Shown one piece after another: positions 4,583-60,925 of a DNA stretch of 60,925 nt. Source of the stretch: a virus. Its lineage: Duplodnaviria; Caudoviricetes. The notes beneath the pieces were generated by a model. That model ran no database searches. It was not told the origin of the DNA and saw only the letters and a program-made list of their open reading frames with translations. Each line of letters opens with the position of its first letter. Position 1 is the stretch's first letter. The stretch spans positions 1 through 60,925 of the IMG/VR virus record IMGVR_UViG_3300030419_007265; one strand, given 5' to 3'. The translations under genes and the position numbers were made by a program.

Positions 4583-4594
4583 TTATTTTTTATT

Positions 4595-7918: not shown

Positions 7919-7919
7919 T

Positions 7920-8594: not shown

Positions 8595-8610
8595 TATCTA
8601 TTATTATACA

Positions 8611-9024
8611 CTATTCTATGGAAAAATAAATCGCCTTCTTTAATTTAAAGTCATATAAACAAAAATTTTTTTCAGGGACAGAATATATTAAGTTATCCAA
8701 ACAAGCCTCTTCTGAGGCGAAAATATCAATTTCACTCGGAACGGCAGCCCCAATGCAATGAGAATGAAATAAAAAAGAAAGTTTTTTAAAATTTTTCACA
8801 TAACTAGAAGGATCAATATCAAATCTTTTTTGAGGCTCTAGTGAAATATTTTTTAAAAAAAACAACTTATTGTAAGATCCTATCCCGCAAATCTCTATAT
8901 TAGAGTGAAGGTTAGAAACTCTTTGTATATTTTTTAAAAAAGAATAAGAAATACACTTAAAATCTGTATCTCTCGATAGACGGAAAACCCCCAAAGGGCA
9001 ATCCTTTTTGATATGCTTGTCCAT
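8611..9024 (-). CDS. JAB/MPN-domain tail assembly protein (gpK N-terminal-like); start uncertain
   Basis: EICG...FHSHC...PSEID JAMM motif; lies between L and I; overlaps the end of L. Confidence 0.75.
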   Translation of the reverse strand: MDKHIKKDCPLGVFRLSRDTDFKCISYSFLKNIQRVSNLHSNIEICGIGSYNKLFFLKNISLEPQKRFDIDPSSYVKNFKKLSFLFHSHCIGAAVPSEIDIFASEEACLDNLIYSVPEKNFCLYDFKLKKAIYFSIE

Positions 9025-9997
9025 ATTTAGCGTAACGGCATCGGCACGCCTCTAAATTTTTCGCGCACTGATCCCTTCTCCAATAAGAAAATTCGAATCG
9101 TGGATCTTTACCAGTAGCCGCAGCAATACAAACAAAAAAAGCATCAGGCCTACTTATAACATCCTCTTGGGAAGTTATTCCTTGTTTAGCTGGATTTTTA
9201 AACAGTGCTTTTATTCTTACGACGTCTCCGACTGAATAAGAAGTTGAAATATTATAATCCCCCCTCCAAGTCAAATTTAAATTATACCCATCTGGGTCAA
9301 CAAATAATTTATTATGCTCATCTGCAATAGGTATTCCTAAATTACCATCAGTGCCAAAAAACTGAGCAGGAGTCACTTCTGTTCCGTTAGGCATTCCGAC
9401 CTTTTGTTCGTCATAATCAGGTCTTCTACCGTAAGCGCAACCATCTCCTCGATACTGCCACGGACAGTAATTAGCTATCATTGTACGAGCTGGAACCTGA
9501 ATATCTTCTAATTCTAAAGGCGAAATTAATTCAAACTCTATATAAAATTTATTTTCTTGAACCTTGCGGTTTACCACAAAATAATCATCATCGAACCTAG
9601 CTGTCGGATCTGGTATACCAAATGGATTAAAATTACTTGGAAAATTAACATTATCTAAATGTTTTAAAAAAATTCTTTTTCTTACCACTTCTCTTCCCGC
9701 GAGATCTGATCTATTTTTAATCAAATCAGTTATTATTCCTTGGGGATTAGCTATCACTAGCTTAGGTCTAGGCAATTGACCATCTCCTCGAACTTCAAAA
9801 TTAGTAGCTTCTATTGGAAGTGCATAATAAGTATGAGGAACGCCTTTATCATCACTTAGGACTATATCTTTAAGATTATTTTTACCCGGATGAAACCGGT
9901 AGTACCCCAACTGTTCCCCTAAATCGAGCTCATAAAGCTCTATTACAGTTTCAGCTTCTAGATTTGCGATTGCGGCGTTGTGTTCTTGCGAGGCCAT
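8957..9997 (-). CDS. Minor tail protein (lambda gpL-like)
   Basis: IELYELD, PIEA..FE..GDGQLPRPKL, CPWQYRGDGC, C-terminal C..C and LPFGGFP. Confidence 0.9.
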   Translation of the reverse strand: MASQEHNAAIANLEAETVIELYELDLGEQLGYYRFHPGKNNLKDIVLSDDKGVPHTYYALPIEATNFEVRGDGQLPRPKLVIANPQGIITDLIKNRSDLAGREVVRKRIFLKHLDNVNFPSNFNPFGIPDPTARFDDDYFVVNRKVQENKFYIEFELISPLELEDIQVPARTMIANYCPWQYRGDGCAYGRRPDYDEQKVGMPNGTEVTPAQFFGTDGNLGIPIADEHNKLFVDPDGYNLNLTWRGDYNISTSYSVGDVVRIKALFKNPAKQGITSQEDVISRPDAFFVCIAAATGKDPRFEFSYWRRDQCAKNLEACRCRYAKYGQAYQKGLPFGGFPSIERYRF

Positions 9998-10004
9998 TAT
10001 TCTG

Positions 10005-31187: not shown

Positions 31188-31622
31188 TTAAAAACCTTCC
31201 CCCATTAATTTTTTAGCTTTTTCATGATCGGGATGAGCTGGATCTGAAATGGAAAGAGGGGTTTCCATTACTATAGAGCGGCTGCCTCTAGTAACGCGCT
31301 TAAATTCTTCACGCAATTTTTGCTTCATGCGAGCCCTAGAACTGTCCGGAAAAATGCCTACTTTGGTGCATAAATTCTGAAGATCGCTCACAGTGGCGTC
31401 ACTCATATTCTTTTCAAATATGTCGGGCTCATTAGTCCCAAAAGGATTAGTAGTTTTAATTCCTAATACTTGCTCCAAGTCAGCTACTTTTTTTAAAGTA
31501 TTATCATCTATTTTACCCGTAGTAAAATTTTGCACATCCTCTAAAGATGCCTTTTTCTTAGAAGCCGTTGCTTCTTTGGTTGTTTTCCCGCTTTTTCTTT
31601 TAGCTTTCTTTTTCGCTGCCAT
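31188..31622 (-). CDS. Hypothetical basic protein (start reassigned to 31622)
   Basis: The track's upstream extension runs through a terminator; MAAKKKAKRK follows an ATGTA variant of the late motif. Confidence 0.6.
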   Translation of the reverse strand: MAAKKKAKRKSGKTTKEATASKKKASLEDVQNFTTGKIDDNTLKKVADLEQVLGIKTTNPFGTNEPDIFEKNMSDATVSDLQNLCTKVGIFPDSSRARMKQKLREEFKRVTRGSRSIVMETPLSISDPAHPDHEKAKKLMGEGF

Positions 31623-31654
31623 ACCTAATATTACATCTAAAAACTCTTTTTTCC

Positions 31655-31690
31655 AAAAAAAAACTCCACCCCGTTGCCGAGGTGGAGTCT
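31655..31690 (-). terminator. Intrinsic terminator after the major capsid gene
   Basis: Minus strand ACTCCACCTCG-GCAA-CGGGGTGGAGT followed by a T tract. Confidence 0.88.
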
Positions 31691-31708
31691 TTAATAACAT
31701 TCAGCCGA

Positions 31709-32863
31709 TTACATGATCAAGCCTACTAAGGCCCTATCATCCAGCACCATGCGTCCCTCTTCTAACGCGCCATAGTAACCAATTCTCTGCTGTCTATTAG
31801 AGAACTGATCATCTGCGACCAAGTTAAACTCGGAACCGGTTTCTGAATCAACAGCGATAGCACGTACCATCGCATCACGTGTACGGTCAAGACCGACGAT
31901 GATTTCTTCACTAGCACCGTTAAATGCGCTAGAAGCAGTTGTGGAACCATGATCAAGATAATCGGTAGTTCCAGCTACTGTATCGAAAACGTCGTTGAAT
32001 CTCTTACCAACACCAAGCTCAAGAATTTCCATGATAGAAATACCATAGAACTCAGTCAAGCCAGCTTGACCAAATATTTTCTCGCGCTCAGGGTCAACCA
32101 ATGTGACAGGCTGAGAAGTTGCACCTACAGCTGCACCATTAGGAGCAAGTGTATTGATTGGCTGATAAGCCATGGCACGAATCTTCTCGACCACCTCAGG
32201 AGAAACCAAAAGGTCAGTTAGACCCTTACGAGCTCCAGTCGGAGTGCCGCCGTCCCATGAAGCGTTAACCCTCTTGATCTTAGTGAATAACTTATTCAAG
32301 TCATCCAATAATAAACGATCAGCTTGAGCCGTACGGAACACGTGACGATTGGTTGCTTCTAATGCAGCTGTACCAGTCTTAGCGTTAGCAAGAGCTGTCA
32401 TAAGCAGATTAGAAGATGTTCTCTCCTGCTTAATTAAAACTTCCTGCGCTACGCGAGTGAATGTTTTACCAATCACATCCAATCTTGAACGAGACGCGTA
32501 TTTCTTATCAAAAGAAACGGCGCTGTCTAGGTTGTAAGTGGCGAACTTCAATTCAGAAGCGGTGGGTTGCACGTAGTTGGTAGGAAGACCTCCAGCTACG
32601 GATTGACTGTAAACACGGATATAATCTTCATCGAAGATATTATAATATAAATCTAAGGGAATAGAAGGATTATCATCAGCGTTGTACTGTAATGGAGTGA
32701 AAAGGTTACTCACAGTTGGAGCGTTATTGATAACTTCAGCTAAGACAGGGCCAATAAACTCTGCCAAAGCGACCTGAGCCGCATAGGCAGTATCACGATT
32801 ACGTGAAGCCATAGCCTTAACTAACTCAATCTGCTCATCGGTTCTTTTTAATGTAATTTTCAT
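31709..32863 (-). CDS. Major capsid protein
   Basis: 384 aa; order portal-protease-decoration-MCP; followed by a terminator. Confidence 0.8.
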   Translation of the reverse strand: MKITLKRTDEQIELVKAMASRNRDTAYAAQVALAEFIGPVLAEVINNAPTVSNLFTPLQYNADDNPSIPLDLYYNIFDEDYIRVYSQSVAGGLPTNYVQPTASELKFATYNLDSAVSFDKKYASRSRLDVIGKTFTRVAQEVLIKQERTSSNLLMTALANAKTGTAALEATNRHVFRTAQADRLLLDDLNKLFTKIKRVNASWDGGTPTGARKGLTDLLVSPEVVEKIRAMAYQPINTLAPNGAAVGATSQPVTLVDPEREKIFGQAGLTEFYGISIMEILELGVGKRFNDVFDTVAGTTDYLDHGSTTASSAFNGASEEIIVGLDRTRDAMVRAIAVDSETGSEFNLVADDQFSNRQQRIGYYGALEEGRMVLDDRALVGLIM

Positions 32864-32891
32864 GTTCTAAATAATTCCTTTCTGTTAATTA

Positions 32892-33554
32892 TTATGCAAC
32901 GTCCCATGAAGCACATACGTCCAAATGAACCAACGCATACTGGGCAGTACCTGTACCAGCAAACTCATCAGATTTACCCATCTGAGAAGTTCTATTACCG
33001 GTACCGATAATATGACCCACTAGCGTTCCTACTACGTCAGCCAGACTTTCGCGTGTGACACCAGTTAACTTGCCGTCATTTGCAGAAATAGCGGCGATGT
33101 TACCCGGAACGAAATTCGAGTCTTTTTCGTAAGCAGTTTCATCGAAGGTGAACAAACCTTTCGTAGCGACAGGCACAGCCTGACCACTAAGAACAGCTTG
33201 AAGTTCATCTTTTTTGACTGGGTTATAAAGGAGTTTTTCTCCGTTCTCGTCATTCTTTAATGTTTGATTAAGAGTGACGCCTAATACTGGGCTTCCGGTG
33301 GTGGCAGCTACAACGCGTAAAGGTACGACAGGATACTTATCTGCACCCAAGAAGGGGTAGTCAGTTTTTCCTAGATAGGTACTTCCGATTAAATCGAAAG
33401 TATCTTTCTGCATATTGCCGCTTAGTACCTTTACCATCACACCTGCACTACCGTTACCGTTAGTTGTGGGGTTATCATCAACCACCTGATTAGCGTACAT
33501 GTTGATAACATCATGATCGCTATATTGCCTAAATGGATATAATCTTAATGCCAT
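32892..33554 (-). CDS. Capsid decoration/cement protein
   Basis: Between scaffold and MCP; VLSGQAVPVATKGLF beta-rich motif. Confidence 0.6.
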   Translation of the reverse strand: MALRLYPFRQYSDHDVINMYANQVVDDNPTTNGNGSAGVMVKVLSGNMQKDTFDLIGSTYLGKTDYPFLGADKYPVVPLRVVAATTGSPVLGVTLNQTLKNDENGEKLLYNPVKKDELQAVLSGQAVPVATKGLFTFDETAYEKDSNFVPGNIAAISANDGKLTGVTRESLADVVGTLVGHIIGTGNRTSQMGKSDEFAGTGTAQYALVHLDVCASWDVA

Positions 33555-33568
33555 AATGGTTTATAGGT

Positions 33569-35149
33569 TTAATAGGTTATGGAAATGTTTTGCGAGCTGA
33601 AGGCTTTCTTGAATCGATCTTCAAGAGGTTCCTCAGCAGAAGATGCCTCATTGTTATTCGCCATACTAGAATGGGGAACTTCAACGTTTTCCACTACATC
33701 TTCAACGGTTTCGCTAGTTTCTTCTGTCGCTGGTGCGGTAGCATTAGCGGTAGTTTCCTGCGCCAAACGCTGTTCAACAGCTTCCTGTATTCGTGCCTCG
33801 AACTGTTGTTCTTGCTCCGCCTTAAAAGCTTTACTTTTATGTTGTAACAAAGATGACAGTCGTGACTGATAATCCTCAAAAGCAGCATCAGAACTATCTA
33901 AAGCTTTAATTTCACTAACCAAAACCCCTCGGTCTTGATCAGTAAGATCATAAAGCTCGTCAATAGATTCCATTCTGCTATTGAATAACTCTTCTGCCGC
34001 AGCAGTGTTGATAGAGGTCTCCAGAGAATTAATCTTCTCGGTAGCTTCCTCTAATTTACTCTGAAGCTCTTCGATTGAAGCTTTGGCTTCCTCGGCGTCT
34101 TTTTGAGCCTGAACTTTTTCAGCCTCAATGCCCTCTCTTTCAGCCCTAAATTGCTCATCTTTCTCACGAATCTTGTCGATCACATGAGAAGCGACGTTAG
34201 CAACGGCCTCTTCAGAGAACTCTGCCTTGTCAGACAACTTCGAATCGAGGATCTTCTCGAACTCTGTTTTGAATTCTGTGATATCCATAGTCTTAGTAGT
34301 TTTTACAGTATTTAATTCACTTTGTGAAATTTTAAAAATATTTTTTTCCGCGTCTATATGAGTCTCCTCAGGGGAAGAGGCATCCCTTTTGTCATTGATA
34401 CTTAAATCAATATTTTTTTCAACAACAAGCCCACTTACATCTGCTGCCGGATTAGTAGTAAATCCAATCCCTAAAGGAAAAACTTCTCCTACTACCAAAC
34501 GGTAAATAGGAGTCCCATCATCTAAAGCCCCTGAACCCTCAAAAGTTTTCAGGTATTTTTTCATCTCTTCGATCTGATTGGGATTAGAGATTATTTCCGC
34601 GTCCTTTAAATTTTGTGAGCCTACGGCAATGACATAATCATTAAATCCTAATTCCCAGCTTGCAGAAATCTTTTTAAAGTAAGGATCATTTTCGTCGCTT
34701 GACCTTAGAAGAACATCCGCAAAATCTTTATTAACTGTTTTATATATAACAGAAGCCAAAGAAATGTAGTAAGGATCTTTGCTAGCTAACGCGGCTCCAT
34801 TCCCTATAATTTTTTCATTGTTTAAATCGGTAAAGCCGGCATTAACAATATGGCCTACAACTTTTTGTTTCTTATGTTCAATATTAGTAGGCTTATGTAT
34901 GAAATAATCAATTAAATCGACTGCCGTCTCAGAGTCGATACCGTCACCATTCCTATTGAACTTATTAACTATAGCAGCATTAAAAGCCACTCCAATTAAA
35001 TCTACATTTCTATCTAAATCTATAGCTTTAGGAATCAGAGGTTTAAGATTATCTAATGATGCTTGACTAATATTCAGATCATCATGCAGATCTGTTGTCG
35101 CATAGATATCAAAAAGATACTCGGTTTTATACTTAAAATTATCTGACAT
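33569..35149 (-). CDS. Prohead protease-scaffold fusion
   Basis: NRNGDG, NIEH...VGHI, SASWE and GIGFTTNPAA protease motifs, then a long acidic coiled coil. Confidence 0.8.
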   Translation of the reverse strand: MSDNFKYKTEYLFDIYATTDLHDDLNISQASLDNLKPLIPKAIDLDRNVDLIGVAFNAAIVNKFNRNGDGIDSETAVDLIDYFIHKPTNIEHKKQKVVGHIVNAGFTDLNNEKIIGNGAALASKDPYYISLASVIYKTVNKDFADVLLRSSDENDPYFKKISASWELGFNDYVIAVGSQNLKDAEIISNPNQIEEMKKYLKTFEGSGALDDGTPIYRLVVGEVFPLGIGFTTNPAADVSGLVVEKNIDLSINDKRDASSPEETHIDAEKNIFKISQSELNTVKTTKTMDITEFKTEFEKILDSKLSDKAEFSEEAVANVASHVIDKIREKDEQFRAEREGIEAEKVQAQKDAEEAKASIEELQSKLEEATEKINSLETSINTAAAEELFNSRMESIDELYDLTDQDRGVLVSEIKALDSSDAAFEDYQSRLSSLLQHKSKAFKAEQEQQFEARIQEAVEQRLAQETTANATAPATEETSETVEDVVENVEVPHSSMANNNEASSAEEPLEDRFKKAFSSQNISITY

Positions 35150-35171
35150 TACATAAAAATGTTACACATTT

Positions 35172-37220
35172 TTATTTCTCTAGAGAATTTTTTCTGCTAT
35201 GGTGCAAGATAGCAGCGGCATAATCATCTAACTCATGCTCGGCGCTTATGTCTACTATTTCTTTAAGAGGTTGCAAATCACTAAGCTTAGCAGAGTTTTC
35301 TATACATGATTTTGCGGTAGGTAGCCAATCTTTCGGGTCTTTAGCTATAACTACAGATTCACATACTTTTTCGAGAATAGATTTTTGATTCTTATTTAGC
35401 CTTTTCTTTTTAAATACTTTTTTAGCTTCACTCAATAAAGCGTTGTAAAGGTCATTTGTACTATCTACTGTTTGTTTGATAGCGTGCACTGAATATCTTG
35501 TTTCAGCTAACGTTTTAGAGCCTACAGGCCTTCCCGGTCTTCCGGGGCTCTTACCGCGGTTATTTTTTCGCTCTTCGTAGCGACGTCGTTGCTCAAGTAA
35601 TTTTGCTCCCTCTGGATGCCGGATCTCTTCAATTTCTTCCTCTTGATCAAAATCCATCGGCATGGGATTTCCCCCCACTAATGGATTATAAAATCCTTTT
35701 TGCCTATCGTCTACAAACTTTTCTTGAGCTTTTTCTAAAGTTTGAGAGTCGGGGAAAACCCCTGTGTCAATTACCTGCATCCCTTGCTCCGGAGGCAGAA
35801 TCCCTAATTCCATCATACGAGTAATGACCCGCTGCATTTGAGCCTGATCTTTTAAATCAATGGTTTCAAATTTAGCTGTAGGAATATCTCTGAAACCAAA
35901 GTTTTTACATAATTGCCTGATTTCATCTTGCAAAAATTCATTTAAAAAAGTATCGCGAGCTTCTTTTAAGCGCTGAAGAAACATCTGAGCTTTTACTTCT
36001 GTACTGGCAAACTTTTCTTGACTTAAAATAATATTCTGAAGGCCCTCTTTAATATCTTGGTTTACTACATCATACTTTGCGGGACCGATCACCTTATTGA
36101 TGTCAGGTATAACAAATTCTGCTTTTGTTGTATAATCACTTACTAAAATTCTGCCAACGCTTTGATTTTGAAACAATGCTTGCATGGCCCTGATATTACG
36201 GGGATTTATCCCTCCATTATCAGGAGTTGTTCCCATTGTAATAAGGAGGACTACATTCTCAATGGTGCGACAAATAGATTGGTCAATCTTCTTCATCTCC
36301 ATTTTGAAGTTGACATCATCTAAAACCGGAAAAGCAAAAGGAATTGCAAAAGGTTCGTAGTCCTGTTTTTTATAAAAAGAATACCGTAATTTTTCCGGAT
36401 CTAATCGGACTTTAATTCCGTCAACCGCCCAGCTATCACTTTTAATACGTTTTTTAATATTTTCTGGCAGAGCATCGTAAAGCTCTCGGTCTTCCTCAGT
36501 TTTTGGGTCTCGTAATCTTTCTACTTCGTATTCGCTTAATACTTTCGCGTATAAGCCGAACTTGTCAAAAGACGTAGCTCTTTGAGCAACAACATCATAA
36601 GGATTTAATAAAATATAACGAACAGGAATTTTATTGCTCATCATATTTATCCCAAGATTTCTTACTTTTGAAAAATCATCCGCCTTAATCTTGCTTTGTA
36701 AAGTATATAAAAATATATTACCGCTTCGATAGAATTCTCTAAAAAACTGATCCTTTAAGTTCCATATTTTAATTTTCTTAAACCAAGCATTTATAAAATC
36801 CCTAGACTTAGCGCTTCCTCCCTCTAAATAAAGTTTAGAGTTCGCAAAATCAGCCATCGTATCCACCGCATTCCTAACGACAGCAATATTCGCATAAGCT
36901 TTTTGGCACAACTCTATAGCGTCACGAACATTAACTCCATCAATAGAATACTGATAGGGCAACATCCCAGCTCTAATATTAGAGTATCTGTAAAGCATCG
37001 GAGCGACGGCAATATTATTACGCCTTAGCTCGGTGTTAGCTCCCCCTACTGGGGAACGAGAATAAGCTTGTGATTCATAATTATAAAAAGAATCTCCGAT
37101 TAATTGCGGCTCATACTCGCCTTTCGATGACGCCTGCATAATATTTTCTATGGGCTGATTCTTCTTTTGAATTTTTTCCCAATAATCAGACCGTTTCGTA
37201 TATTTTCTTTTTGCTGCCAT
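35172..37220 (-). CDS. Portal protein
   Basis: 682 aa after terL; VRNAVDTMADFA, FFREFYRSGNIF; C-terminal GRPVGS tail. Confidence 0.8.
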   Translation of the reverse strand: MAAKRKYTKRSDYWEKIQKKNQPIENIMQASSKGEYEPQLIGDSFYNYESQAYSRSPVGGANTELRRNNIAVAPMLYRYSNIRAGMLPYQYSIDGVNVRDAIELCQKAYANIAVVRNAVDTMADFANSKLYLEGGSAKSRDFINAWFKKIKIWNLKDQFFREFYRSGNIFLYTLQSKIKADDFSKVRNLGINMMSNKIPVRYILLNPYDVVAQRATSFDKFGLYAKVLSEYEVERLRDPKTEEDRELYDALPENIKKRIKSDSWAVDGIKVRLDPEKLRYSFYKKQDYEPFAIPFAFPVLDDVNFKMEMKKIDQSICRTIENVVLLITMGTTPDNGGINPRNIRAMQALFQNQSVGRILVSDYTTKAEFVIPDINKVIGPAKYDVVNQDIKEGLQNIILSQEKFASTEVKAQMFLQRLKEARDTFLNEFLQDEIRQLCKNFGFRDIPTAKFETIDLKDQAQMQRVITRMMELGILPPEQGMQVIDTGVFPDSQTLEKAQEKFVDDRQKGFYNPLVGGNPMPMDFDQEEEIEEIRHPEGAKLLEQRRRYEERKNNRGKSPGRPGRPVGSKTLAETRYSVHAIKQTVDSTNDLYNALLSEAKKVFKKKRLNKNQKSILEKVCESVVIAKDPKDWLPTAKSCIENSAKLSDLQPLKEIVDISAEHELDDYAAAILHHSRKNSLEK

Positions 37221-37269
37221 GTTAAAATAGTTTACACCTAAAGTTATTAAAGTGACTTTTAAAGTTACT

Positions 37270-39135
37270 TTACATTATAAAAAGCGGTTCGAAAGTTTCT
37301 ACAACATCTTCTGCGGTTTGTGATTGTGAATCTAAATACACTTTTGCCATCCAATTTGCCAAAACTAATGCTGAATAAGAATCCTTTCGTGCCTTGTCCG
37401 GTCCTGTTTGCCGTCTAAGATTAGGCGGCAAATCAAATGTTTGCGTACCTTGAGCTGTAGTGGTTATTTGCACTAAAGCGCATTCATTTTTGGTTAATTC
37501 GATCATATCTGACTGATGCTCAATAAAATCAATCATTTTGGCCGCAGCCGTTTGCTTTGACTCCTCTGTGGTACGGAGAAACTTAAGGCTATCTATAGGA
37601 ATGCTTTGGCGCTTCTGTTTTGTGTAAAAATCATCAATTGCTCTACTGGCAAAATATATTCGGCGATGATCAAAATTCGCTTGAAGCAACTCGTTGGCCT
37701 GCCTGATCCAATTGCTAGTTGGTTTCCTTAATATAACATGATGATAGTTTTCTCTGTTATATTGTCTTTTGTAAGATTTTAAATCTTTTTGATATTCCTC
37801 AGGTTTATCGAGGCCTACCTCAATGGTTTGTAATTTAATTTTTTTCTGTTTAAAAATTTCGCTTTCATTACAGGCTTGCATAAATTGCACTCCTCCATTG
37901 TAGTCTCCGCATATAGCTACTATGTTAAAATTCTCTAAACAAAAAAGAAAATAATTAATATGATGTTTAAGGGAAGTTCCCGATAATGCATAACTATGAA
38001 CTAATGTTACAGTATGGTTTTCTGGGTTTAATTTAAGTATTTGAATAGCAAAATCATCAGAACTTTCAGTTTGCGACCATGAAGGGTCAAAAGCTAAAAT
38101 GTATTCGGCATCCGGATCTCCTTTCACCTCAACGCAAGGAAGGTCTCCATCGGGGATAGTGCATAAAGCCATCTTGCTAGTCTTAAAATAACCAGAACTA
38201 TCATCAGTAAAAATAGCCCCAAACTCTCTTTCAAATTGAGATTGACTCATTGTTGCTTTAGCTTGATTAATTAAATTTTCATCATAAAGCTGTTTAGGCG
38301 CACAATCATAACTATACTGCATGATACATCTAGAAGCGTTGTCTTTTTCAGCGTCTAAAGTAATTAAATGCTCGAATTGGGTATACAATTTATACAAGTA
38401 TTCAAATTTATAAGAAGCTGAAGAAAGGGCTATTAGTTTATTATTAGGCCATACATAACGCTCTTCTTCGCTCATTTTATTTTCTTCAATAAGCCGTGTC
38501 TCCAATTTAAATAAATCGTCCCGTTGAGTAGGGTTTTCTACTACCGACAAAAATGGCACTATAACTTCGTTATAAATTCTCTCCGGCATTAACAAGAACT
38601 CATCAATAATAATTCTATGAAAACGAAAACCACGCAGCTTCTCTCCATCACCTAAAGGCAAAGCCCTAATTCTACTTGCGCCAATCTCCATTAACCATTC
38701 ATCATTGCTTTTTGAAGTTTTTGTAATGCATTGTCGAAAAAATGCTGCATCAGGTTTATTAGCTATATCTTCAATTTTCTTAAAGATCATTTTTGCTTGT
38801 CTAAAAGATTTAGATAATATTCCAATCTCGACCCCTTGGTTAAGCACCGCATCTAGAGCAGCAAACACACCTGTTGTGAATGACTTGGACATACCACGAG
38901 ACCATACTCCTAAAAAATAATCAGTTTCAAACATCGACTTAATTGCCATATGCTGAAAAGGAAATAACTTCACTCCTAAAATTAGATCAGTAGTAAAAGT
39001 TATATTGTTCCTAAGAAACTCATACAAAGCTAATTTGGCTTCTTTCTCTTCAAGAAAACCGTCAAGCTTTAAAAGCTCTTCGTTATTTCTTAAATAAGGG
39101 GCGCGCCTATGTTGTCTGCCTTTATTCCAGCTCAT
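37270..39135 (-). CDS. terL: Terminase large subunit
   Basis: LFPFQ, SRGMSKS (Walker A), LRGFRF, IIIDEF (Walker B), LAFDP and KDSYSAL nuclease residues. Confidence 0.93.
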   Translation of the reverse strand: MSWNKGRQHRRAPYLRNNEELLKLDGFLEEKEAKLALYEFLRNNITFTTDLILGVKLFPFQHMAIKSMFETDYFLGVWSRGMSKSFTTGVFAALDAVLNQGVEIGILSKSFRQAKMIFKKIEDIANKPDAAFFRQCITKTSKSNDEWLMEIGASRIRALPLGDGEKLRGFRFHRIIIDEFLLMPERIYNEVIVPFLSVVENPTQRDDLFKLETRLIEENKMSEEERYVWPNNKLIALSSASYKFEYLYKLYTQFEHLITLDAEKDNASRCIMQYSYDCAPKQLYDENLINQAKATMSQSQFEREFGAIFTDDSSGYFKTSKMALCTIPDGDLPCVEVKGDPDAEYILAFDPSWSQTESSDDFAIQILKLNPENHTVTLVHSYALSGTSLKHHINYFLFCLENFNIVAICGDYNGGVQFMQACNESEIFKQKKIKLQTIEVGLDKPEEYQKDLKSYKRQYNRENYHHVILRKPTSNWIRQANELLQANFDHRRIYFASRAIDDFYTKQKRQSIPIDSLKFLRTTEESKQTAAAKMIDFIEHQSDMIELTKNECALVQITTTAQGTQTFDLPPNLRRQTGPDKARKDSYSALVLANWMAKVYLDSQSQTAEDVVETFEPLFIM

Positions 39136-40069
39136 TTCGTTCTAAAAAATATTGAATGTCTGTTTGCCAAATTTCCTTACCATAGATTAATAATCTAGGT
39201 ATTATGGCAGATGCTTTTTCCCTAGTTTCTACAAATATAAATTGACAGCATCGAGCATACTCATGAGAAATTTCTTTGATTTGTTTTAATACAAAATCAA
39301 TATTAGTGCGCCGATTGAATATTTTATTTTCTTTAATTATTTTTTGTATACTCGACTCCACAACAACAAAAAGATAAGAATCCATTTCTTTAGCTCGTTC
39401 AATCTCTCGTTTAAATCTATCTACATTATGCTTATTTAAGGTTCCCTGCAGGTCACTTCCAGATTTACGGTCTACAAAAGTATAACTATAATGATCGCCT
39501 AAAGTAGTATAGTCTCCTATATCTAATTTCAGGATTTCTGTATCGCAATCAAACTTTAATGGTTTTTGCTCCCTTGTGTCTATGGCAATACATAAATCTT
39601 CAGGAATTTTCTTCGTAAAAAAATCTTTAGATAAATTTTTGTTATACAAAGGTTCGCAACCAATTTCTGCACACGCTGCATTATAGCTGCCAAAAAGTTT
39701 TCTATAAATTTCAATAGAAGGAATGAAAGAGTTCGCTGTCTCTAAATGGAAAGGGCCATATTTTCTTTTTTTCTTAGAGTGCCGCTTTTGAAGTAAAGAA
39801 GTGATATATTCTTTTACCTCTTCTTGCGGGTTTTCTTTGCACCATTTGATTAACTGTTGCTTTGTCGAAAAGTCTCTTTCAAAATATTCGTCATATCTTT
39901 TAAACGGGAGCGGATCGCCAGTTAACTTATTTGTGCGTGGAAAGTATTTTGTATAATAGCCTGCTAAATTTAAACCATGTTGTTTAATGTGCTTATGTAA
40001 AGAAGCCCTGCTTGTAAATTCTTTTTTACACTCCGCGCATGAAAAAACCTTGGAGTTTGTGACCTCCAC
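39122..40069 (-). CDS. C2H2 zinc finger + ERCC4/XPF-type nuclease
   Basis: CAEC...HKHIKQH; IDTREQKP...IGDY...VDRKSGSDL...VVVES. Confidence 0.8.
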   Translation of the reverse strand: MEVTNSKVFSCAECKKEFTSRASLHKHIKQHGLNLAGYYTKYFPRTNKLTGDPLPFKRYDEYFERDFSTKQQLIKWCKENPQEEVKEYITSLLQKRHSKKKRKYGPFHLETANSFIPSIEIYRKLFGSYNAACAEIGCEPLYNKNLSKDFFTKKIPEDLCIAIDTREQKPLKFDCDTEILKLDIGDYTTLGDHYSYTFVDRKSGSDLQGTLNKHNVDRFKREIERAKEMDSYLFVVVESSIQKIIKENKIFNRRTNIDFVLKQIKEISHEYARCCQFIFVETREKASAIIPRLLIYGKEIWQTDIQYFLERNELE

Positions 40070-41139
40070 TAGATGGCGTCCTCCTTACTAATGCCTAATA
40101 CACGGGCTTTCCAGTCAGGCATTTTTTCTATTTCATCCGCCTCCTGTTGAACTGCTTGCTTTTGCATATCGGCCATTTTTATCATTAGTTTTCGCTCTTC
40201 TTCATCTTGAAATAGTTGAACTAAAGAAATAACAGAGGCGTTTCTTTGCTGTTGATTAGCTATGCGTTTCGCCCGCTCTCCATTGAGCTTTGCTAGCATT
40301 TTATCAATTCTATTTATACATTGATTATACTCCTCAGCTTTGGTTTTAAGCATTTCTGTTAACCTCATAGTTAAATCATTTTGCCCCTCCGTGTCATCAA
40401 ACATCAAATTTAGTTTTTGTTTTTGCTGTTCTATTTCTTTAAGATTAACATAGTCCATGCATACATTCACATATAAATTTAATTCATCTGAAGTCAGGTC
40501 AGGTTTATCCCATGTGCTTCGAATATATTCAGATTCAAAAAGATCCCTGCTTTGCCGGGTTAGGTAAGAACTAATAACTTGCACAAACCGTGGGGCGTTT
40601 AAATAAGTAATAAGCTTTTCAATACATTTTTTATCTTGTAAATTTATTTTTTTTAGGTCAAACTCTTTTGAAGTAACTTTGTTCAACCTTTTCATTGCAG
40701 TAGATAAAATGTGAGGAGGAGTATATTTTTCTCCAACCGCATCATCACGCAAATTCACAGTTGAAGGAAATTCTTTAGTAATATAATCGCAGAGAGAAAT
40801 AAACTTGTCGCTTTCCGTAAAGCCTTTACTTTCGGAATCTTTAGGCCACAGTAGTTGACCTATTTCCTTTTTGGTCATTTCGCCGCAATAATGCTGCTTT
40901 ACAAAAGACTTCTCTTCGTCTTGTAAAAAATATTTAGTAGCTCTTTTTTTAACCTTTGTTCGATAACTCAATCCTTTCTCTACCCAAAATTTTCTTAGCG
41001 CACGCCCTCTTACCGTACTGCCTTTTTCATTGGTGTCTTTAAATAATTGCTTTGTAGCTTCATTAAGATCACCGTCCAGCTCATCAAATAGCTTTAAGCT
41101 AGCCCCTTTTTCTTCTGCGGTTAGTACGTACTCTTTCAT
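40069..41139 (-). CDS. Coiled-coil protein, candidate terminase small subunit
   Basis: Helical with HTH-like N-terminal half, two genes upstream of terL; function inferred from position only. Confidence 0.4.
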   Translation of the reverse strand: MKEYVLTAEEKGASLKLFDELDGDLNEATKQLFKDTNEKGSTVRGRALRKFWVEKGLSYRTKVKKRATKYFLQDEEKSFVKQHYCGEMTKKEIGQLLWPKDSESKGFTESDKFISLCDYITKEFPSTVNLRDDAVGEKYTPPHILSTAMKRLNKVTSKEFDLKKINLQDKKCIEKLITYLNAPRFVQVISSYLTRQSRDLFESEYIRSTWDKPDLTSDELNLYVNVCMDYVNLKEIEQQKQKLNLMFDDTEGQNDLTMRLTEMLKTKAEEYNQCINRIDKMLAKLNGERAKRIANQQQRNASVISLVQLFQDEEERKLMIKMADMQKQAVQQEADEIEKMPDWKARVLGISKEDAI

Positions 41140-41858
41140 TCGAAAAATATATCAGTTTCATCACAAATCTTTTTAGCAATTTTTTTGTAGAAATTCTTTA
41201 AATTTTTTATCTGCTTATAGCCGGCTTTTCGCCCTTTTTCATTACTTTTGTAACCTAACACTCTAGCGACCGTTTCTTCATCGATGTGATCTATAAATAG
41301 CATTTTATATATAATATAATGCCTATCGTTTAAATATTGACGCATTGATAGATGCATCGAAACTACAGCCTCTCCAATATTATAATGATCTTCTGGGACG
41401 GTAAATCTATCAAATTCATTTGTTTCCAGAGAAACCGGTATTTTTATGTCATATGCTTGTTTACGTGTTTTTTCCCATTTAGCGTAGTCGGGACACTCGT
41501 TAGACTGAAGTCCTGTCTTAGTAAAAGAACACAAATTAGAAACTTGGCCGCTCCCTTGTTCTTTCGATTGATTGTGCTTGCAACTTATGCAGGGCCTTGC
41601 AAAATTAGAATAATTATTGCGTAGAATATTCTTAAGTTGATTGGAGATAATTTTATTGACCCACGGTTCAATAGGTCGAACTTGATCCCATTGCTCCCAT
41701 TTTTTATAAATATGAGCCCTAATAATCTGGGATACATCATCAAAGTCAAGCCATGCGATTGCATGAAGGTGCCACTTATAATAGCGCTTCCTTATTTCAT
41801 TATCGATAGTTTCTGACTTGTCCTCGTAGGTATGTTTGTTATTCTCCTCCACCACCAA
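41136..41858 (-). CDS. Phage RNA polymerase sigma factor (sigma70/ECF-like) with Cys-rich insert
   Basis: Region-2-like DFDDVSQIIRAHIYKK...PWVNKIISNQLKNILR; region-4-like IYKMLFIDHIDEETVARVLG; CISC...C...C between them. Confidence 0.75.
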   Translation of the reverse strand: MVVEENNKHTYEDKSETIDNEIRKRYYKWHLHAIAWLDFDDVSQIIRAHIYKKWEQWDQVRPIEPWVNKIISNQLKNILRNNYSNFARPCISCKHNQSKEQGSGQVSNLCSFTKTGLQSNECPDYAKWEKTRKQAYDIKIPVSLETNEFDRFTVPEDHYNIGEAVVSMHLSMRQYLNDRHYIIYKMLFIDHIDEETVARVLGYKSNEKGRKAGYKQIKNLKNFYKKIAKKICDETDIFFE

Positions 41859-56927: not shown

Positions 56928-56937
56928 GTTTTGCGTT

Positions 56938-57995: not shown

Positions 57996-58117
57996 GCCGA
58001 GATCGAATTGATGTGAAGCCCGATCTGAAAGCAGCAGATCAAATAATAAGAAAACATCTTCGACGACTCGACCCACCCCGCGAAGAAAAAAAAGTTGAAA
58101 AAAAGTTGCGAAAGGGG

Positions 58118-58146
58118 TTGACCTTGAGAAGATTACTTGGTAAGAT
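58118..58146 (+). promoter_or_regulatory. Early promoter P5 with hairpin leader
   Basis: TTGACC-17-TAAGAT with TG extension; leader contains GGTTC-GAAA-GGGCC. Confidence 0.75.
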
Positions 58147-58186
58147 ATTTTCACCGGTTCGAAAGGGCCACAATAAAAATAAAGTT

Positions 58187-58402
58187 ATGATGACCACAGA
58201 AGAAATACTAAAGCAGATCGAGAGCGTACCACGCCACCAGATCACCTACACTCGGCAGGATGGCCGCACCAACGAATACACGGTAGCCATCACCGAGCGT
58301 CACGCCGACCACATTATCGGCTACAAGTTCCAGAACGGCGAAAGCTGCGGAATACGTCGATTCAACATCGACCAAATAGGCATCCTCGAGCCGGTCACTT
58401 GA
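58187..58402 (+). CDS. Stand-alone WYL-like (Sm/SH3-fold) protein, 71 aa; in-frame longer form from 57992 possible
   Basis: ITYTRQDGRTNEYTV...IIGY...GIRRFNIDQI resembles the WYL pattern Y...G..R ... R.F..DRI. Confidence 0.6.
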   Translation: MMTTEEILKQIESVPRHQITYTRQDGRTNEYTVAITERHADHIIGYKFQNGESCGIRRFNIDQIGILEPVT

Positions 58403-58984
58403 CCGGCCCGAGTTTGAATGGAATCTTTGGCGGTGGTCGCCAGATTTTTTACCCTTTACCATAAAGTAAACGACCACGCATCTGACAGGGCAGATATAAA
58501 ATAACCCTGACGCTTTTTGAAAATTTGAGTTGGCGAGTAAAGGTCTAGCGGCCTGACGCCTCCTTTGCCCACGGTTTGCCAGATATACCTACGGGTCGGT
58601 GCACGTTGAAAGGCAATGTTAAAACACCTCTCCTTTTGCAAGTGTTTTGATTAGACGGCCTAAGAAGGGACAAGGATGGTAAGACATCTTACGCTTGATT
58701 ACTGGTGGCGCGGTAACAACTCAATTAATTTTCTCTCTCGACGGAGGGAGATCGGTGTGGCTGAATAAATCTTCGCCTAGAGGATTAAGGCACGCTCGAT
58801 GAGACTAACGGCCAAGTGGCAGAGGAATTATCGGGTGGTTTGAGTAGGGATCACTGAAACTTGATCTAGGACTCGAAAGATGTAGGTACTCAAGAAATCC
58901 TACCACCAAATTTTTTTTGTAGGCCCGTGTGTGCGCTGTCTACCTCATAACACTAAACACCCCGCGAAAGCGGGGTGTTTTTTT
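58385..58984 (+). ncRNA. Putative large structured ncRNA (~600 nt)
   Basis: No plus-strand ORF of 60 aa or more; more than 12 stems, UNCG/GNRA loops, several pseudoknot pairings, ends in a terminator. Confidence 0.7.
58955..58984 (+). terminator. Intrinsic terminator
   Basis: AAACACCCCGC-GAAA-GCGGGGTGTTTTTTT. Confidence 0.92.
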
Positions 58985-58985
58985 G

Positions 58986-59032
58986 TTGACATCTAACGGC
59001 CGGCGGGCCTGCGCCCAACCGTTAGAGTCAAG
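58986..59032. repeat. Fixed-spacing inverted repeat, copy 1
   Basis: TTGACATCTAAC-N23-GTTAGAGTCAAG. Confidence 0.85.
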
Positions 59033-59075
59033 CAAAATCGCTTAAAAAAAAATAAAAAAAAAATTAAAAAAAGGG

Positions 59076-59103
59076 TTGCAATTTTCCAGAACTGTGATAT
59101 ACT
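59076..59103 (+). promoter_or_regulatory. Early promoter P6
   Basis: Long A-tract, TTGCAA-16-TATACT with TG extension, 10 nt to ATG. Confidence 0.85.
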
Positions 59104-59113
59104 TTTTTCTGTT

Positions 59114-59269
59114 ATGAGAGATACGATTCAAGTTGAAGAGGTTTTTGAGGCTAGCACTGAAATGGTTTCCTGCACTTGTTGCGGGTGTGGTGAGCAGCAC
59201 CACATCGACCACGATGAGGCTGCCGAGTGGTCTAATCTAGATCGGTTCATGTGCTGGGAGTGTGAATAA
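59114..59269 (+). CDS. 51-aa zinc-ribbon protein (below track cutoff)
   Basis: MRDTIQVEEVFEASTEMVSCTCCGCGE...MCWECE. Confidence 0.75.
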   Translation: MRDTIQVEEVFEASTEMVSCTCCGCGEQHHIDHDEAAEWSNLDRFMCWECE

Positions 59270-59272
59270 ATC

Positions 59273-59413
59273 ATGAGCGATAATATAAAATCTTTTGGTG
59301 GGATGCTGCTGCGCCAAGCGCAGATGAAAGAATGGAAAGCAATCCCCGAAGCTGAACGTCCCACATGGGAGCAGTTTAAGCGCGGATTAAAAAGGAAAAA
59401 AAATTCAAATTAA
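59273..59413 (+). CDS. 46-aa hypothetical protein (below track cutoff)
   Basis: MSDNIKSFGGMLLRQAQMKEWK..., 3 nt after the upstream stop. Confidence 0.55.
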   Translation: MSDNIKSFGGMLLRQAQMKEWKAIPEAERPTWEQFKRGLKRKKNSN

Positions 59414-59416
59414 TGC

Positions 59417-59444
59417 TTGCTTTTTTCTGAGAGTCTGATATACT
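59417..59444 (+). promoter_or_regulatory. Early promoter P7
   Basis: TTGCTT-16-TATACT with TG extension, 10 nt to ATG. Confidence 0.85.
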
Positions 59445-59454
59445 AATTTTTGTT

Positions 59455-59640
59455 ATGAGAGATATGTTTGACAATATGTACACGGTTCGGATCGCCAACT
59501 CTGGCGATGTTGCTGGTTTCCCGCGTTCGCACGATGGTCTTGAAAAGGCCATTATCTTGGCCGATCGCGAGGGTACTGAGGTCGCCCTTGATGGTGAGGT
59601 TGTCTGGTCTCCAGAATGCGGCAAAAGAAGATTAGATTGA
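59455..59640 (+). CDS. 61-aa hypothetical protein (MRDMF...)
   Basis: Own promoter; MRD start. Confidence 0.75.
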   Translation: MRDMFDNMYTVRIANSGDVAGFPRSHDGLEKAIILADREGTEVALDGEVVWSPECGKRRLD

Positions 59641-59647
59641 TTTAATG

Positions 59648-59696
59648 CTTGACACCTAACGGCCGGCGGCCTGCCCGGCCGGCGTTAGAATGCAAG
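59648..59696. repeat. Fixed-spacing inverted repeat, copy 2
   Basis: CTTGACACCTAAC-N23-GTTAGAATGCAAG. Confidence 0.85.
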
Positions 59697-59739
59697 CGAA
59701 ATGCGAAGAAATAAAAATAAAAAAAAAGATATTTTAGCG

Positions 59740-59767
59740 TTGACTTTTTCTGAGTTTGTGGTACACT
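59740..59767 (+). promoter_or_regulatory. Early promoter P8
   Basis: TTGACT-16-TACACT with TG extension, 9 nt to ATG. Confidence 0.85.
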
Positions 59768-59776
59768 GTTTTCGTT

Positions 59777-59977
59777 ATGAGAGATAATATTAGTTGTGAA
59801 GAGGTTTTTGAGTTGGACGCGGCCGCACGTGCGGAGTTTCATGCGGTGTGCGATGAGTGGAATGATGAGGCTGTCCGTGCGCAGGACGCCGAGATGGTCA
59901 AGGCCGAGGAGGAGGAGGAGGAGCTGTGCTGGTGCAAGTTCTTTGAGTCGTGCCCCACTTGCTTCGGCAAGAAGTAA
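59777..59977 (+). CDS. 66-aa acidic Cys-rich protein (MRDNISCEEVFE...)
   Basis: Own promoter; EEEEEE run; CWC...CPTC. Confidence 0.75.
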   Translation: MRDNISCEEVFELDAAARAEFHAVCDEWNDEAVRAQDAEMVKAEEEEEELCWCKFFESCPTCFGKK

Positions 59978-59988
59978 GACCTAAAAGG

Positions 59989-60036
59989 CTTGACATCTAA
60001 CGGGCCGCGGCCCCCCGCCGAGGCGTTAGAGTCAAG
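59989..60036. repeat. Fixed-spacing inverted repeat, copy 3
   Basis: CTTGACATCTAAC-N23-GTTAGAGTCAAG. Confidence 0.85.
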
Positions 60037-60079
60037 TAAAAAATAAAAAAAAGTTTTTTTATTTTTTTTAAAAAATGTC

Positions 60080-60107
60080 TTGTATTATTCGGAGAGTCTG
60101 GTAAAAT
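60080..60107 (+). promoter_or_regulatory. Early promoter P9
   Basis: TTGTAT-16-TAAAAT with TG extension, 10 nt to ATG. Confidence 0.8.
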
Positions 60108-60117
60108 GATTTCTGTT

Positions 60118-60240
60118 ATGAGGGATAAGAAACAAGAAGTCGAGACGATTACCTTGAATGGGCGCGTCTACGTTGTGAACAATGATCCGAAGCACCAACG
60201 CCGCCAACGGGCTGGCTACTATGGGAGGAACCCGAAATGA
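60118..60240 (+). CDS. 40-aa hypothetical protein (below track cutoff)
   Basis: MRDKKQEVETITLNGRVYVVNNDPKHQRRQRAGYYGRNPK. Confidence 0.7.
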   Translation: MRDKKQEVETITLNGRVYVVNNDPKHQRRQRAGYYGRNPK

Positions 60241-60455
60241 GTAGTCCGTTTGATGGAATCGATTGGGATCACTACATGGCCACCTTCCCAAAGGCCACCG
60301 CACCTGCGCCAAAAAAAGTTGATCCGCTATTAAAGAAGGCAATCGCTCGAGCTTCTATGTTGCTTTTCTTGAATGAACTGAAGCCGACCAAGAGCGCAAA
60401 AAAATTGGCTGAACTGGAAAAAAGTGCTTTACTTGTAAAAAAATTTGTGAAATAA
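60237..60455 (+). CDS. 72-aa hypothetical protein
   Basis: ATGA overlap with the upstream ORF. Confidence 0.55.
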   Translation: MSSPFDGIDWDHYMATFPKATAPAPKKVDPLLKKAIARASMLLFLNELKPTKSAKKLAELEKSALLVKKFVK

Positions 60456-60456
60456 T
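60428..60456 (+). promoter_or_regulatory. Early promoter P10
   Basis: TTTACT-17-AATAAT with TG extension, 10 nt to ATG. Confidence 0.65.
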
Positions 60457-60466
60457 CTTTTCTGTT

Positions 60467-60691
60467 ATGAGGACATATACATTGTATTGGAAGGACGAAG
60501 ACACCAACAGGGTGCGCAGCGAAGAATTCTCCAACAAGACCGGTTGGGATCACTCCGCGATGAACGCGGCACTGGAGATGGCCGAAGAGGCCAACGACAA
60601 TGGGTTTCCGTGGCTGCTGGAAGAGGACGGTTGCCAAGTCGCCCACGGCAACAACGGCGACCTGCTCGGAGTCTATCGCTACCAAGGATAA
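60467..60691 (+). CDS. 74-aa hypothetical protein (MRTY...)
   Basis: Own promoter; GTTATGAGGA start. Confidence 0.7.
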   Translation: MRTYTLYWKDEDTNRVRSEEFSNKTGWDHSAMNAALEMAEEANDNGFPWLLEEDGCQVAHGNNGDLLGVYRYQG

Positions 60692-60695
60692 AATT

Positions 60696-60925
60696 ATGAG
60701 TGGAATGGAAGCAACGTTAAAAATGATGGGCATCAACGAACGCGGCCACGAATGCTTACCCATCAAAGTGGAGTTTGGTCTTGAAAGAGCTGACAAGTCT
60801 GCAATCGATTGGCGGACGCTTGAAAAGATTGAATCGCCTTGGACGTTTAGCGCGTCCGGTGAAATCTCAAATTATTCATTCGGACAAAATCTCGATGAAA
60901 TTTACAAATTGAATAGTGGTAACCA
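60696..60925 (+). CDS. Hypothetical protein, truncated at window end
   Basis: MSGMEATLKMMGINERGHECLPIKV... open to the edge. Confidence 0.6.
   Translation, partial: MSGMEATLKMMGINERGHECLPIKVEFGLERADKSAIDWRTLEKIESPWTFSASGEISNYSFGQNLDEIYKLNSGN

Follow-up and report, generated by a model that had tools for sequence, protein, structure and literature searches.

The stretch of DNA analysed here (the window, 60,925 nt) is an entire linear IMG/VR record, IMGVR_UViG_3300030419_007265, with an estimated completeness of 42%. Its source is an uncultured marine phage, siphovirus-like, with genes for lambda-J-like tail proteins, large terminase (TerL), PhoH, a carbamoyltransferase and a ferredoxin. An early region of very small open reading frames (ORFs) of 40–150 aa, without strong Pfam matches, extends from about 56.9 kb up to the window end. 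Within this region a preliminary description had pointed out three inverted repeats. We found that they are copies of a 47–49-bp imperfect palindrome, with which a recurring early-gene regulatory cassette begins on its upstream side. The cassette runs from stop codon or intrinsic terminator through palindrome, A/T tract of 43–63 bp and sigma-70-type promoter to ATG.

Palindrome copies and cassettes in the window

The motif TTGACAYCTAAC-N23-GTTAGA is present in the window in three copies (at 58986, 59649 and 59990). With up to two mismatches allowed, the full pattern gave three matches where none was expected, and not one of 100 shuffled sequences contained any, which bears out the earlier claim of three repeats with conserved arms. 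The looser pattern CTAAC-N15–35-GTTAG returned the identical three matches and no others; three were reached in 7 of 100 shuffles. All copies are on the plus strand. Copy 1 (58985–59032) reads GTTGACAT-CTAAC, core (58998–59020), GTTAG-AGTCAAG, and one A of its 5′ arm is unpaired because the 3′ arm AGTCAAG is one base short. Copy 2 (59648–59696) reads CTTGACAC-CTAAC, core (59661–59683), GTTAG-AATGCAAG; its outer 3′ arm pairs poorly with the 5′ arm. Copy 3 (59989–60036) reads CTTGACAT-CTAAC, core (60002–60024), GTTAG-AGTCAAG. As had been claimed, the cores are nearly all G/C (22–23 of 23 positions), and all three are 23 nt long. Stable folds form on both strands of every copy (RNA, −26.5 to −30.5 kcal/mol; z −3.1 to −5.1), and the reported lack of a plus-strand U-tail holds too, since no T-run follows the hairpin in any of the three.

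The preliminary description had also placed each copy after a stop codon or terminator and before the A-tract of the next promoter, and this is what we observe. Copy 1 is abutted by an intrinsic terminator (58955–58984, plus strand; 11-bp stem with seven G–C pairs, T7) that closes a unit with a manA RNA, while stop codons lie 8 nt upstream of copy 2 and 12 nt upstream of copy 3. On the downstream side, an A/T tract of 43 nt precedes each of the three promoters, all on the plus strand. An A-rich spacer (59033–59075) leads from copy 1 to the −35 hexamer of promoter 1 (59076–59103; TTGCAA, 16 nt, TATACT, with TG before the −10; ATG at 59114). Another follows copy 2 (59697–59739) and is succeeded by promoter 2 (59740–59767; TTGACT, 16 nt, TACACT; ATG at 59777). 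The spacer 3′ of copy 3 (60037–60079) is an A/T tract containing A8-G-T7, and promoter 3, assigned by eye, occupies 60080–60107 (TTGTAT, 16 nt, TAAAAT; ATG at 60118). Each palindrome is exactly 121 nt from the ATG, and the spacers are unrelated in sequence. The word A7–8-G-T7 recurs in A/T spacers, at 60037–60079 in the window and many times in two related contigs, G001 and G002 (see below); it is likely to confer a strong intrinsic bend between palindrome and promoter.

The cassette between copies 1 and 2 (59114–59640, plus strand) comprises ORFs 59114–59269, 59273–59413 and 59455–59640, the third of which starts from a promoter of its own that lacks a palindrome. A single 66-aa ORF separates copies 2 and 3 (MRDNISCEEVFE...; 59777–59977, plus strand). 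The unit 3′ of copy 3 (60118–60691, plus strand) contains ORFs 60118–60240, 60237–60455 and 60467–60691, the last again with its own promoter. Unit-internal promoters that come after a stop codon are without a palindrome. ORFs 59114–59269 and 59777–59977 share the N-terminus MRD.I..EEVFE and CxxC pairs, and their products are predicted to be small paralogous zinc-ribbon-like proteins.

The word GTTATGAGRGA is conserved after each early promoter (starts at 56935, 57172, 59111, 59452, 59774, 60115 and 60464), so that the small early proteins begin with MRD or MRE. In these promoters 10 nt separate the −10 hexamer from the ATG and there is no Shine–Dalgarno sequence; the early mRNAs would thus be leaderless or nearly so. 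Some 25 further IMG/VR contigs, the longest of 170 kb, contain this promoter/leader module too.

As for the wider surroundings, the contig has a G+C content of 36–46%. A blastn comparison of 58000–60925 with GenBank phages gave no match, and tblastn with TerL detected distant matches only, below 31% identity, in Bacillus and Microcystis phages; the phage is therefore without a close cultured relative. No tRNA was found in the window. The manA RNA (RF01745; 58734–58913, plus strand) scores 56.3 bits against a gathering score of 55.2 and belongs to the unit 5′ of copy 1; a copy is also found in G001 (L069 11199–11379). The conserved tail, CCTCATAAC followed by a hairpin and T-run, occurs three times in G002 and twice in G001, always just 5′ of a palindrome. 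A literature search on manA found nothing bearing on the palindrome. On the minus strand, an ORF of 240 aa (41136–41858) has a weak Sigma70_r2 match and is possibly a phage sigma factor, judging by this similarity. Proteins of this kind (240–257 aa) are encoded in all four contigs that carry the element, with similarly weak scores (20.7–23.1 bits; cut-off 24).

The palindrome family and its genomic context

A scan of IMG/VR in which cores of 13–40 nt were permitted located the element in three further contigs (G001–G003), and the core is 23 nt in every copy there. The four element-bearing contigs, the window included, hold 20 copies in records 15–42% complete. A fixed-length IMG/VR scan revealed no further G+C-cored copies; its chance matches have a core G+C of 13–57%, compared with 78–96% in the family. 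In metagenomes, with cores of 16–30 nt permitted, we found at least 155 marine loci. Among the matches listed, 87 are distinct and 58 G+C-rich, and 57 of these have a core of 23 nt and one of 22 nt. The counts on about 105–111 copies given here and below include metagenome loci and hold among the matches listed. In this set, 102 of 105 distinct G+C-rich copies have a 23-nt core and three a 22-nt core. A search from the 5′ arm alone encountered GTTAG at +23 in 159 readings and at +22 in four, and ATTAG in one. Therefore, the exact core length first noted in three copies is general, and it is held although the cores contain slippage-prone runs of C or G. On the other hand, the core is not freely variable, as had been supposed, but semi-conserved: c1 is G, c6–c9 GCGG, c15–c18 CCGC and c23 C (108 distinct copies), with the GCGG and CCGC blocks symmetric about c12. 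All 23 core positions are G/C, putative loops included.

Several more divergent or unusual copies were encountered. Two more distant ones retain CTTGACATCTAAC-N23-GTTAGAT and have no outer partner. A scan of a genome collection produced three matches, one of them a chance match (a Lactobacillus contig with an A/T core); the other two are on contigs of 1.9–2.1 kb binned in a Flavobacteriaceae metagenome-assembled genome and too small to name a host. At L129 (283–390) and L138 palindromes stand in tandem pairs, 26 nt apart. In several copies the 3′ outer arm is exchanged for a small palindrome, GTTGATAATCAAC, that resembles the inside of the 27-nt flanking units of a sister family. A second family with identical arm words looks unrelated: a perfect 40-nt palindrome, TTGACGCCTAAC-GACCCCTATAGGGGTC-GTTAGGCGTCAA, from other metagenomes (L119, L137, L147, L149, L150, L159, L194, L197, L210 and L215), whose 16-nt centre varies by compensated changes, as in GACCACTATAGTGGTC. 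A literature search for the 5′-arm 12-mer of the main family gave no match.

In the four viral contigs the element is confined to the early small-ORF region, at 8–9 copies per genome within about 8.5 kb; its copies span 58985–60036 in the window, 2888–11085 in G001 and 31364–39805 in G002. Inspection by eye of the 20 copies revealed a directly adjoining upstream hairpin with a T-run in 13 cases and a tRNA-Cys with a T-run in one. Downstream, a promoter and start codon follow within about 120 nt in 14 copies, a second terminator in three and A/T-rich iteron-like arrays in two, and one case is unclear; three of the 20 copies are flanked by terminators on both sides. In the wider set, a T-run of at least 5 occurs within 30 nt upstream in 73 of 111 copies. 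Conversely, every strong terminator detected in the early region, except that at 58445, has a palindrome no more than 37 nt downstream.

The distance from palindrome to promoter is usually 43–63 bp. When measured from CTAAC to the −10 in copies with a promoter on one side, it falls into the classes 95–98, 104–108 and 114–116 in 54 of 60 cases. These classes are about 9–10 bp apart, and a helical periodicity of the palindrome–promoter distance is suggestive only. The element is orientation-locked to gene direction. When an independent promoter scan set the orientation, core asymmetry matched the promoter side in 54 of 60 copies, contradicted it in 5 and was tied in 1; when the leader motif set it, all copies with leaders at 102–129 nt agreed.

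The early regions of the relatives contain some further features next to the palindrome. A tRNA-Cys (L069 9768–9841, minus strand, in G001; L070 7080–7153, plus strand, in G002) is followed by a T-run and then at once by the palindrome. A/T-rich arrays of TTATTTAC/TTATTTGT units with period 15 adjoin palindromes in G001, G002, G004 and G005 (L070 11826–11983 in G002; below 2888 and at about 7040–7100 in G001; L322; L323); these resemble iterons and may represent an origin or a binding array. Contigs from two RNA runs (X17 and X20) scarcely cover the element. A single X17 contig extends in a relative from the upstream block across A-tract and promoter into the gene start, owing perhaps to read-through or DNA carry-over.

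In the further contigs with the promoter/leader module, the upstream elements are built alike but have other complementary arms; these represent sister lineages. G006 has TTGACATGTAAC-N23-GTTAC, in which the arms GTAAC/GTTAC represent a switch from C–G to G–C. The arms and lengths are ACTTA-N27-TAAGT in all six copies of G004 (90% complete) and ACTTA-N28-TAAGT in all three of G005 (100% complete), and L285 and L287 have AGTTA/TAACT arms. The sister cores are G+C-only, their sense-strand C-run flips with gene direction, and the elements again come after stops or terminators and before promoters or A/T-rich arrays. Arms that are uniform within and switched between lineages, together with an exact length in each lineage, would be expected of a site with a co-evolving specific reader. 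A further conserved block of the sister lineage, GGATGGGTTTCCGTGCCAAC, is located between the palindrome unit and the A/T tract in L322, L323, L273, L295, L296 and L303; a related word, GTGCCAA, occurs 3′ of the G+C core in L271, L272, L291 and L299, whose arms show hardly any complementarity.

Gain, loss and reordering of cassettes

Comparison among relatives revealed that cassette genes are gained, lost and reordered, with junctions spread over the conserved cassette sequences; homologous recombination would give such a pattern. The element thus does stand, as first described, at the boundaries of small gene units shuffled between relatives. For example, G001 lacks window positions 58985–59647 (copy 1 and three genes), and next to its manA terminator stands an element resembling copy 2. 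This indel is one event bounded by the palindrome.

The expectation that breakpoints would map to the element failed, however. Among the ends of homology blocks in three genomes, only 2 of 76 are within 25 nt of a palindrome (7–9% expected at random), compared with 26 of 76 at promoter/leader modules (10–18% expected). Block ends are often located just past the common N-terminal start of the ORFs represented by 59114–59269 and 59777–59977. In two DNA runs, contig joints are mostly promoter-to-promoter, and one is palindrome-to-palindrome (58984>59709). Joints that lead backwards (60693>59095 in X1 and X2; 59404>59096; 60127>59134; 59726>59092) all carry 10–38 other letters, consisting of alternative promoter sequence. 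In our reading they reflect a different arrangement of genes in related genomes rather than excised circles.

A search for a recombinase elsewhere in the genome had been suggested as well. Phage_integrase, Resolvase and Y1_Tnp were each found in none of the four element-bearing contigs (15–42% complete), and the first two in none of three further records with sister elements, two of which are 90% and 100% complete. Homologous exchange at any point of the conserved cassette is the best explanation of the shuffling; portions of two reports (Arbiol et al. 2010, PMC2839356; Comeau et al. 2014, PMC4122927) propose this for PeSLs (promoter-early stem-loops), the portable promoter and stem-loop cassettes of T4-type phages.

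Possible roles of the palindrome and related systems

The reading that we rank first, and hold tentatively, is that the palindrome is a duplex-DNA docking site for a lineage-specific factor. It would work on double-stranded DNA in a geometry-sensitive manner. The putative reader, phage- or host-encoded, would be a lineage-specific and probably dimeric protein that contacts the arms and the symmetric GCGG/CCGC blocks across a fixed-length spacer, and RNA polymerase may contribute via the TTGACA arm. Once occupied, the site would mark out or insulate the beginning of every early transcription unit; it would keep a defined register 5′ of the promoter, with its centre at roughly −95, −103 or −113. 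DNA at the element should be little transcribed, because 13 of 20 copies directly adjoin an upstream hairpin and T-run and one a tRNA-Cys and T-run. Placement, strict length, the bias towards the 5′ arm, lack of covariation, G/C-only core, spacing, directionality and arm switching all speak for such docking. The earlier suggestion of a site for a dimeric protein or recombinase is therefore retained in its first part and abandoned in its second, given that no recombinase was found in the records searched, the spacer is 23 bp and the cassettes have their own promoters.

A serious rival, ranked second and in our view possible if rather unlikely, is that the element acts as a sense-strand RNA hairpin transcribed by read-through. 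It would be a terminator or attenuator, a site of RNase III-type processing or a block to 3′ exonucleases, isolating the cassettes, and might possibly be read by a lineage-specific RNA-binding protein. Stable folds (z −3.1 to −5.1), the position of window copies 2 and 3 right behind stop codons, the locked orientation and the complementarity retained through arm switches between lineages all agree with this proposal. So does the arm pairing, which in 48 promoter-oriented copies is found in 85.5% of cells, compared with 30–42% for slid controls. Two variants with T-runs, one of them with a compensated pair, point the same way, and PeSL stem-loops are described in part of one report (PMC2839356) as cutting reporter expression about as much as rrnB T1. 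Nevertheless, among the matches listed a T-run of at least 5 within 14 nt after GTTAG is present in just 1 of 110 copies, the 10 nt past the arm being A-rich, and most copies lie just 3′ of a strong canonical terminator. A plain intrinsic terminator, which needs a U-tract at once after the hairpin, is disfavoured on these grounds: 109 of 110 listed copies are without one, and most are behind a real terminator. Covariation is lacking, too. For the promoter-oriented copies (48 of 49 rows, one dropped) the score is 0.065 compared with 0.077 in shuffles, 479 of 500 of which score as high; all covariation measures are below those of shuffles, with 479–500 of 500 as high. Mutual information within the core disclosed no nested pairs, and the top pair, c2/c22, is the non-complementary G..G or C..C. 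The loops are G/C-only, and the core length is fixed to the base. Of the 110 listed copies, 104 retain TTGAC in the 5′ outer arm, whereas its 3′ partner GTCAA is retained in 85 and absent in 18, so that the 3′ arm appears dispensable, and outer-arm mismatches are uncompensated. The C before CTAAC faces A in all 13 cases, the G after GTTAG faces T in all 20, and C–G never occurs. On the sense strand, G.T cells appear to outnumber A.C cells, by 24 to 3 in 33 of 48 rows, a comparison from which out-of-register rows were dropped, removing the C.A class; at the single position counted on all 108 listed copies, G.T and C.A number 20 and 13. Finally, no Rfam family matches the palindrome, the only matches being manA (58734–58913), tRNA in relatives and chance-level ones.

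The remaining proposals are less probable. A replication-linked signal of single-stranded or structural DNA, either a hairpin formed by the displaced or the lagging strand for priming or loading, or a G+C clamp bounding A/T-rich iteron-like arrays and A/T tracts, is unlikely. Its attraction is that 2 of 20 copies abut A/T-rich TTATTTAC-like arrays of period 15, as do members of the sister family in G004 and G005, that orientation is uniform over each co-directional block and that every core position is G/C; yet 8–9 mostly promoter-adjacent copies in about 8.5 kb are unlike an origin or priming site, and no replication protein is linked to the element. We consider it similarly improbable that the element is an alternative promoter, read by a phage sigma-like protein or of hairpin type, which would give each cassette a second, later promoter. 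The perfect TTGACA, the T-rich upstream flank, co-orientation with the genes and the weak Sigma70_r2 protein in all four contigs (20.7–23.1 bits; cut-off 24) would suit such a role. But there is no −10-like element 16–18 bp past TTGACA, where the G/C core lies, symmetric conservation over 23 nt to GTTAG is superfluous for a promoter, and a terminator comes at once downstream in 3 of 20 copies. A search for a T7-type polymerase (PF00940) gave no match, but control genomes were also unmatched, hence this result is uninformative. Very improbable and largely refuted is a site of the attC, lox or REP type, where a recombinase would cut out and insert cassettes by site-specific recombination, even though 13-bp inverted arms flank an asymmetric core, RYYYAAC is present in 96 of 110 listed copies and both the clean palindrome-plus-cassette indel and the joint 58984>59709 involve the element. 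Tyrosine-recombinase cores are 6–8 bp, a length far exceeded by the 23-bp spacer; block ends avoid the element and favour promoter/leader modules, and the recombinase families were not found in the records searched, as described above. Integron attC sites measure 57–141 nt and possess a second inverted pair (L″/L′) with extrahelical bases. The element resembles them as an imperfect palindrome at cassette boundaries, with CTAAC...GTTAG close to R″ RYYYAAC and R′ GTTRRRY and an unpaired base in some copies. However, it is 47–49 nt long and has no second L box pair, its centre having only the GCGG/CCGC block, an IntI-type integrase was found in 0 of 7 records (four of this lineage, 15–42% complete), and the cassettes have their own promoters. 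The attC-like look of the inner arms that had been noticed is loose: RYYYAAC occurs in 96, GTTRRRY in 59 and both words in 45 of the 110 listed copies, and window copies 1–3 fail R′ at the last base. A mimic of clustered regularly interspaced short palindromic repeats (no array; irregular spacing of 340–2500 bp), a Chi-like site (the GCGG block is palindromic and hence not directional), a restriction-site decoy and a gyrase site were considered and dropped without a dedicated test.

Several observations weigh against the docking site. The palindrome would have a very stable fold if single-stranded. The variants L070 7725 and L154 have a T7–T9 run straight after the hairpin and look like true terminators, and one T-run variant has a compensated CTAAT/ATTAG pair. 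For window copies 2 and 3, no additional terminator is present in the stretch from the preceding stop codon to the following promoter, and in 6 of 20 copies no promoter follows within about 120 nt. After collapse to 19 spacer clusters, the spacing is only weakly significant (best Rayleigh R 0.54, reached in 135 of 5000 uniform simulations) and its best period is 8.3, not 10.5. In the sister family the element is 165–185 nt from the −10, with another conserved block between. Lineage-wise arm switching and exact length would also fit a protein-recognised hairpin, and complementary switching is likewise predicted for a conserved stem. Arm conservation in the metagenome is inflated because the search pattern required each locus to have at least one copy with both arms. 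Moreover, Pfam searches detected no helix-turn-helix or other DNA-binding domain in 14 window and 25 G002 early-region ORFs.

Among known systems, φ29 p4 binds as a dimer at inverted repeats with a fixed spacer, in operators upstream of early promoters. The palindrome has in common with such operators inverted half-sites, a fixed spacer and a position upstream of early promoters beside bent A/T DNA; it differs in its centre near −100, its 47–49 bp, its conserved G/C core and in having no known regulator. REP/BIME elements (repetitive extragenic palindromes and bacterial interspersed mosaic elements) are short, G/C-rich, imperfect intergenic palindromes, uniform within a genome, that bind proteins and stabilise upstream mRNA and have a RAYT (REP-associated tyrosine) transposase as partner. 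The present palindromes are likewise short, G/C-rich, imperfect, intergenic after genes and uniform within a genome. In contrast to REP/RAYT, the Y1 (HUH) transposase was found in 0 of 4 partial contigs, and the copies occupy one 8.5-kb phage region, coupled to promoters and with a fixed 23-nt core. With an intrinsic terminator the element has in common a G/C-rich hairpin after genes, but not the U-tract, and it usually lies just past the true terminator. For a DNA-ejection or nucleoid signal, the other role put forward in the preliminary description, a comparison is offered by the T5 injection-stop (iss) region, which part of a preprint (bioRxiv 10.1101/866236) outlines as one long repeat region of 1.2–1.6 kb with DnaA boxes. 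Like it, the element belongs to non-coding repeats and palindromes in an early region, which in T5 is injected early; here, however, there are 8–9 dispersed 48-bp units, each beside a promoter.

The closest parallel is the PeSL. According to portions of the two PeSL reports (PMC2839356; PMC4122927), PeSLs are repeated composite intergenic motifs with a sigma-70-like early promoter, A/T-rich upstream sequence and a G/C-rich stem-loop; they cluster in a hyperplastic region of small orphan ORFs and bound indels or replacements between relatives that are attributed to homologous recombination. In the present phages we likewise find a sigma-70-like promoter with an A/T tract, a stable G/C-rich stem-loop and clustering among small ORFs. 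Motif-bounded exchange is represented by one indel and by the block ends, 28 of which (out of 76) lie no more than 25 nt from part of the motif: 26 from a promoter/leader module and 2 from a palindrome. The differences, as far as those portions go, are that PeSL phages are T4-like myoviruses, whereas the present phage is siphovirus-like with lambda-J-like tail genes, and that the PeSL stem-loop is defined by structure and placed at varied sites, mostly between or over the −35 and −10. Its function as a transcription terminator was shown by reporter assays in RB49/phi1 (PMC2839356, in part). Here, the palindrome is conserved in sequence, has a fixed geometry and is 43–63 bp 5′ of the −35, and a distinct canonical terminator is usually present besides. 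A PeSL also has a Shine–Dalgarno sequence at its 3′ end, which is absent here, with the ATG 10 nt after the −10. The element is best regarded as the boundary component of a cassette of PeSL type, found in a new group of phages.

This would extend the idea of portable promoter and stem-loop cassettes driving orphan-gene turnover from T4-type coliphages to unrelated, abundant marine phages. A component missing from PeSLs would be added as well: a palindrome of specific sequence and exact geometry, in which the arms vary by lineage and the G+C core and length rule are constant. The pattern of arms and core points to a trans-acting reader, for which a 48-bp probe offers a handle. As compact natural parts, the terminator, boundary element, bent A/T tract, strong promoter and leaderless start are candidate insulated expression units. 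A broader scenario appears possible, though doubtful: a clade of abundant uncultured marine phages (about 145–170 kb) might possess an undescribed boundary element with a dedicated co-evolving reader, which insulates or switches early orphan-gene units, bounds A/T-rich arrays and serves as a linker for cassette movement. Should the element turn out to be no more than an additional hairpin after a terminator, the finding would be of modest value for annotation; if a dedicated reader exists, the element would be a prokaryotic-virus counterpart of an insulator.

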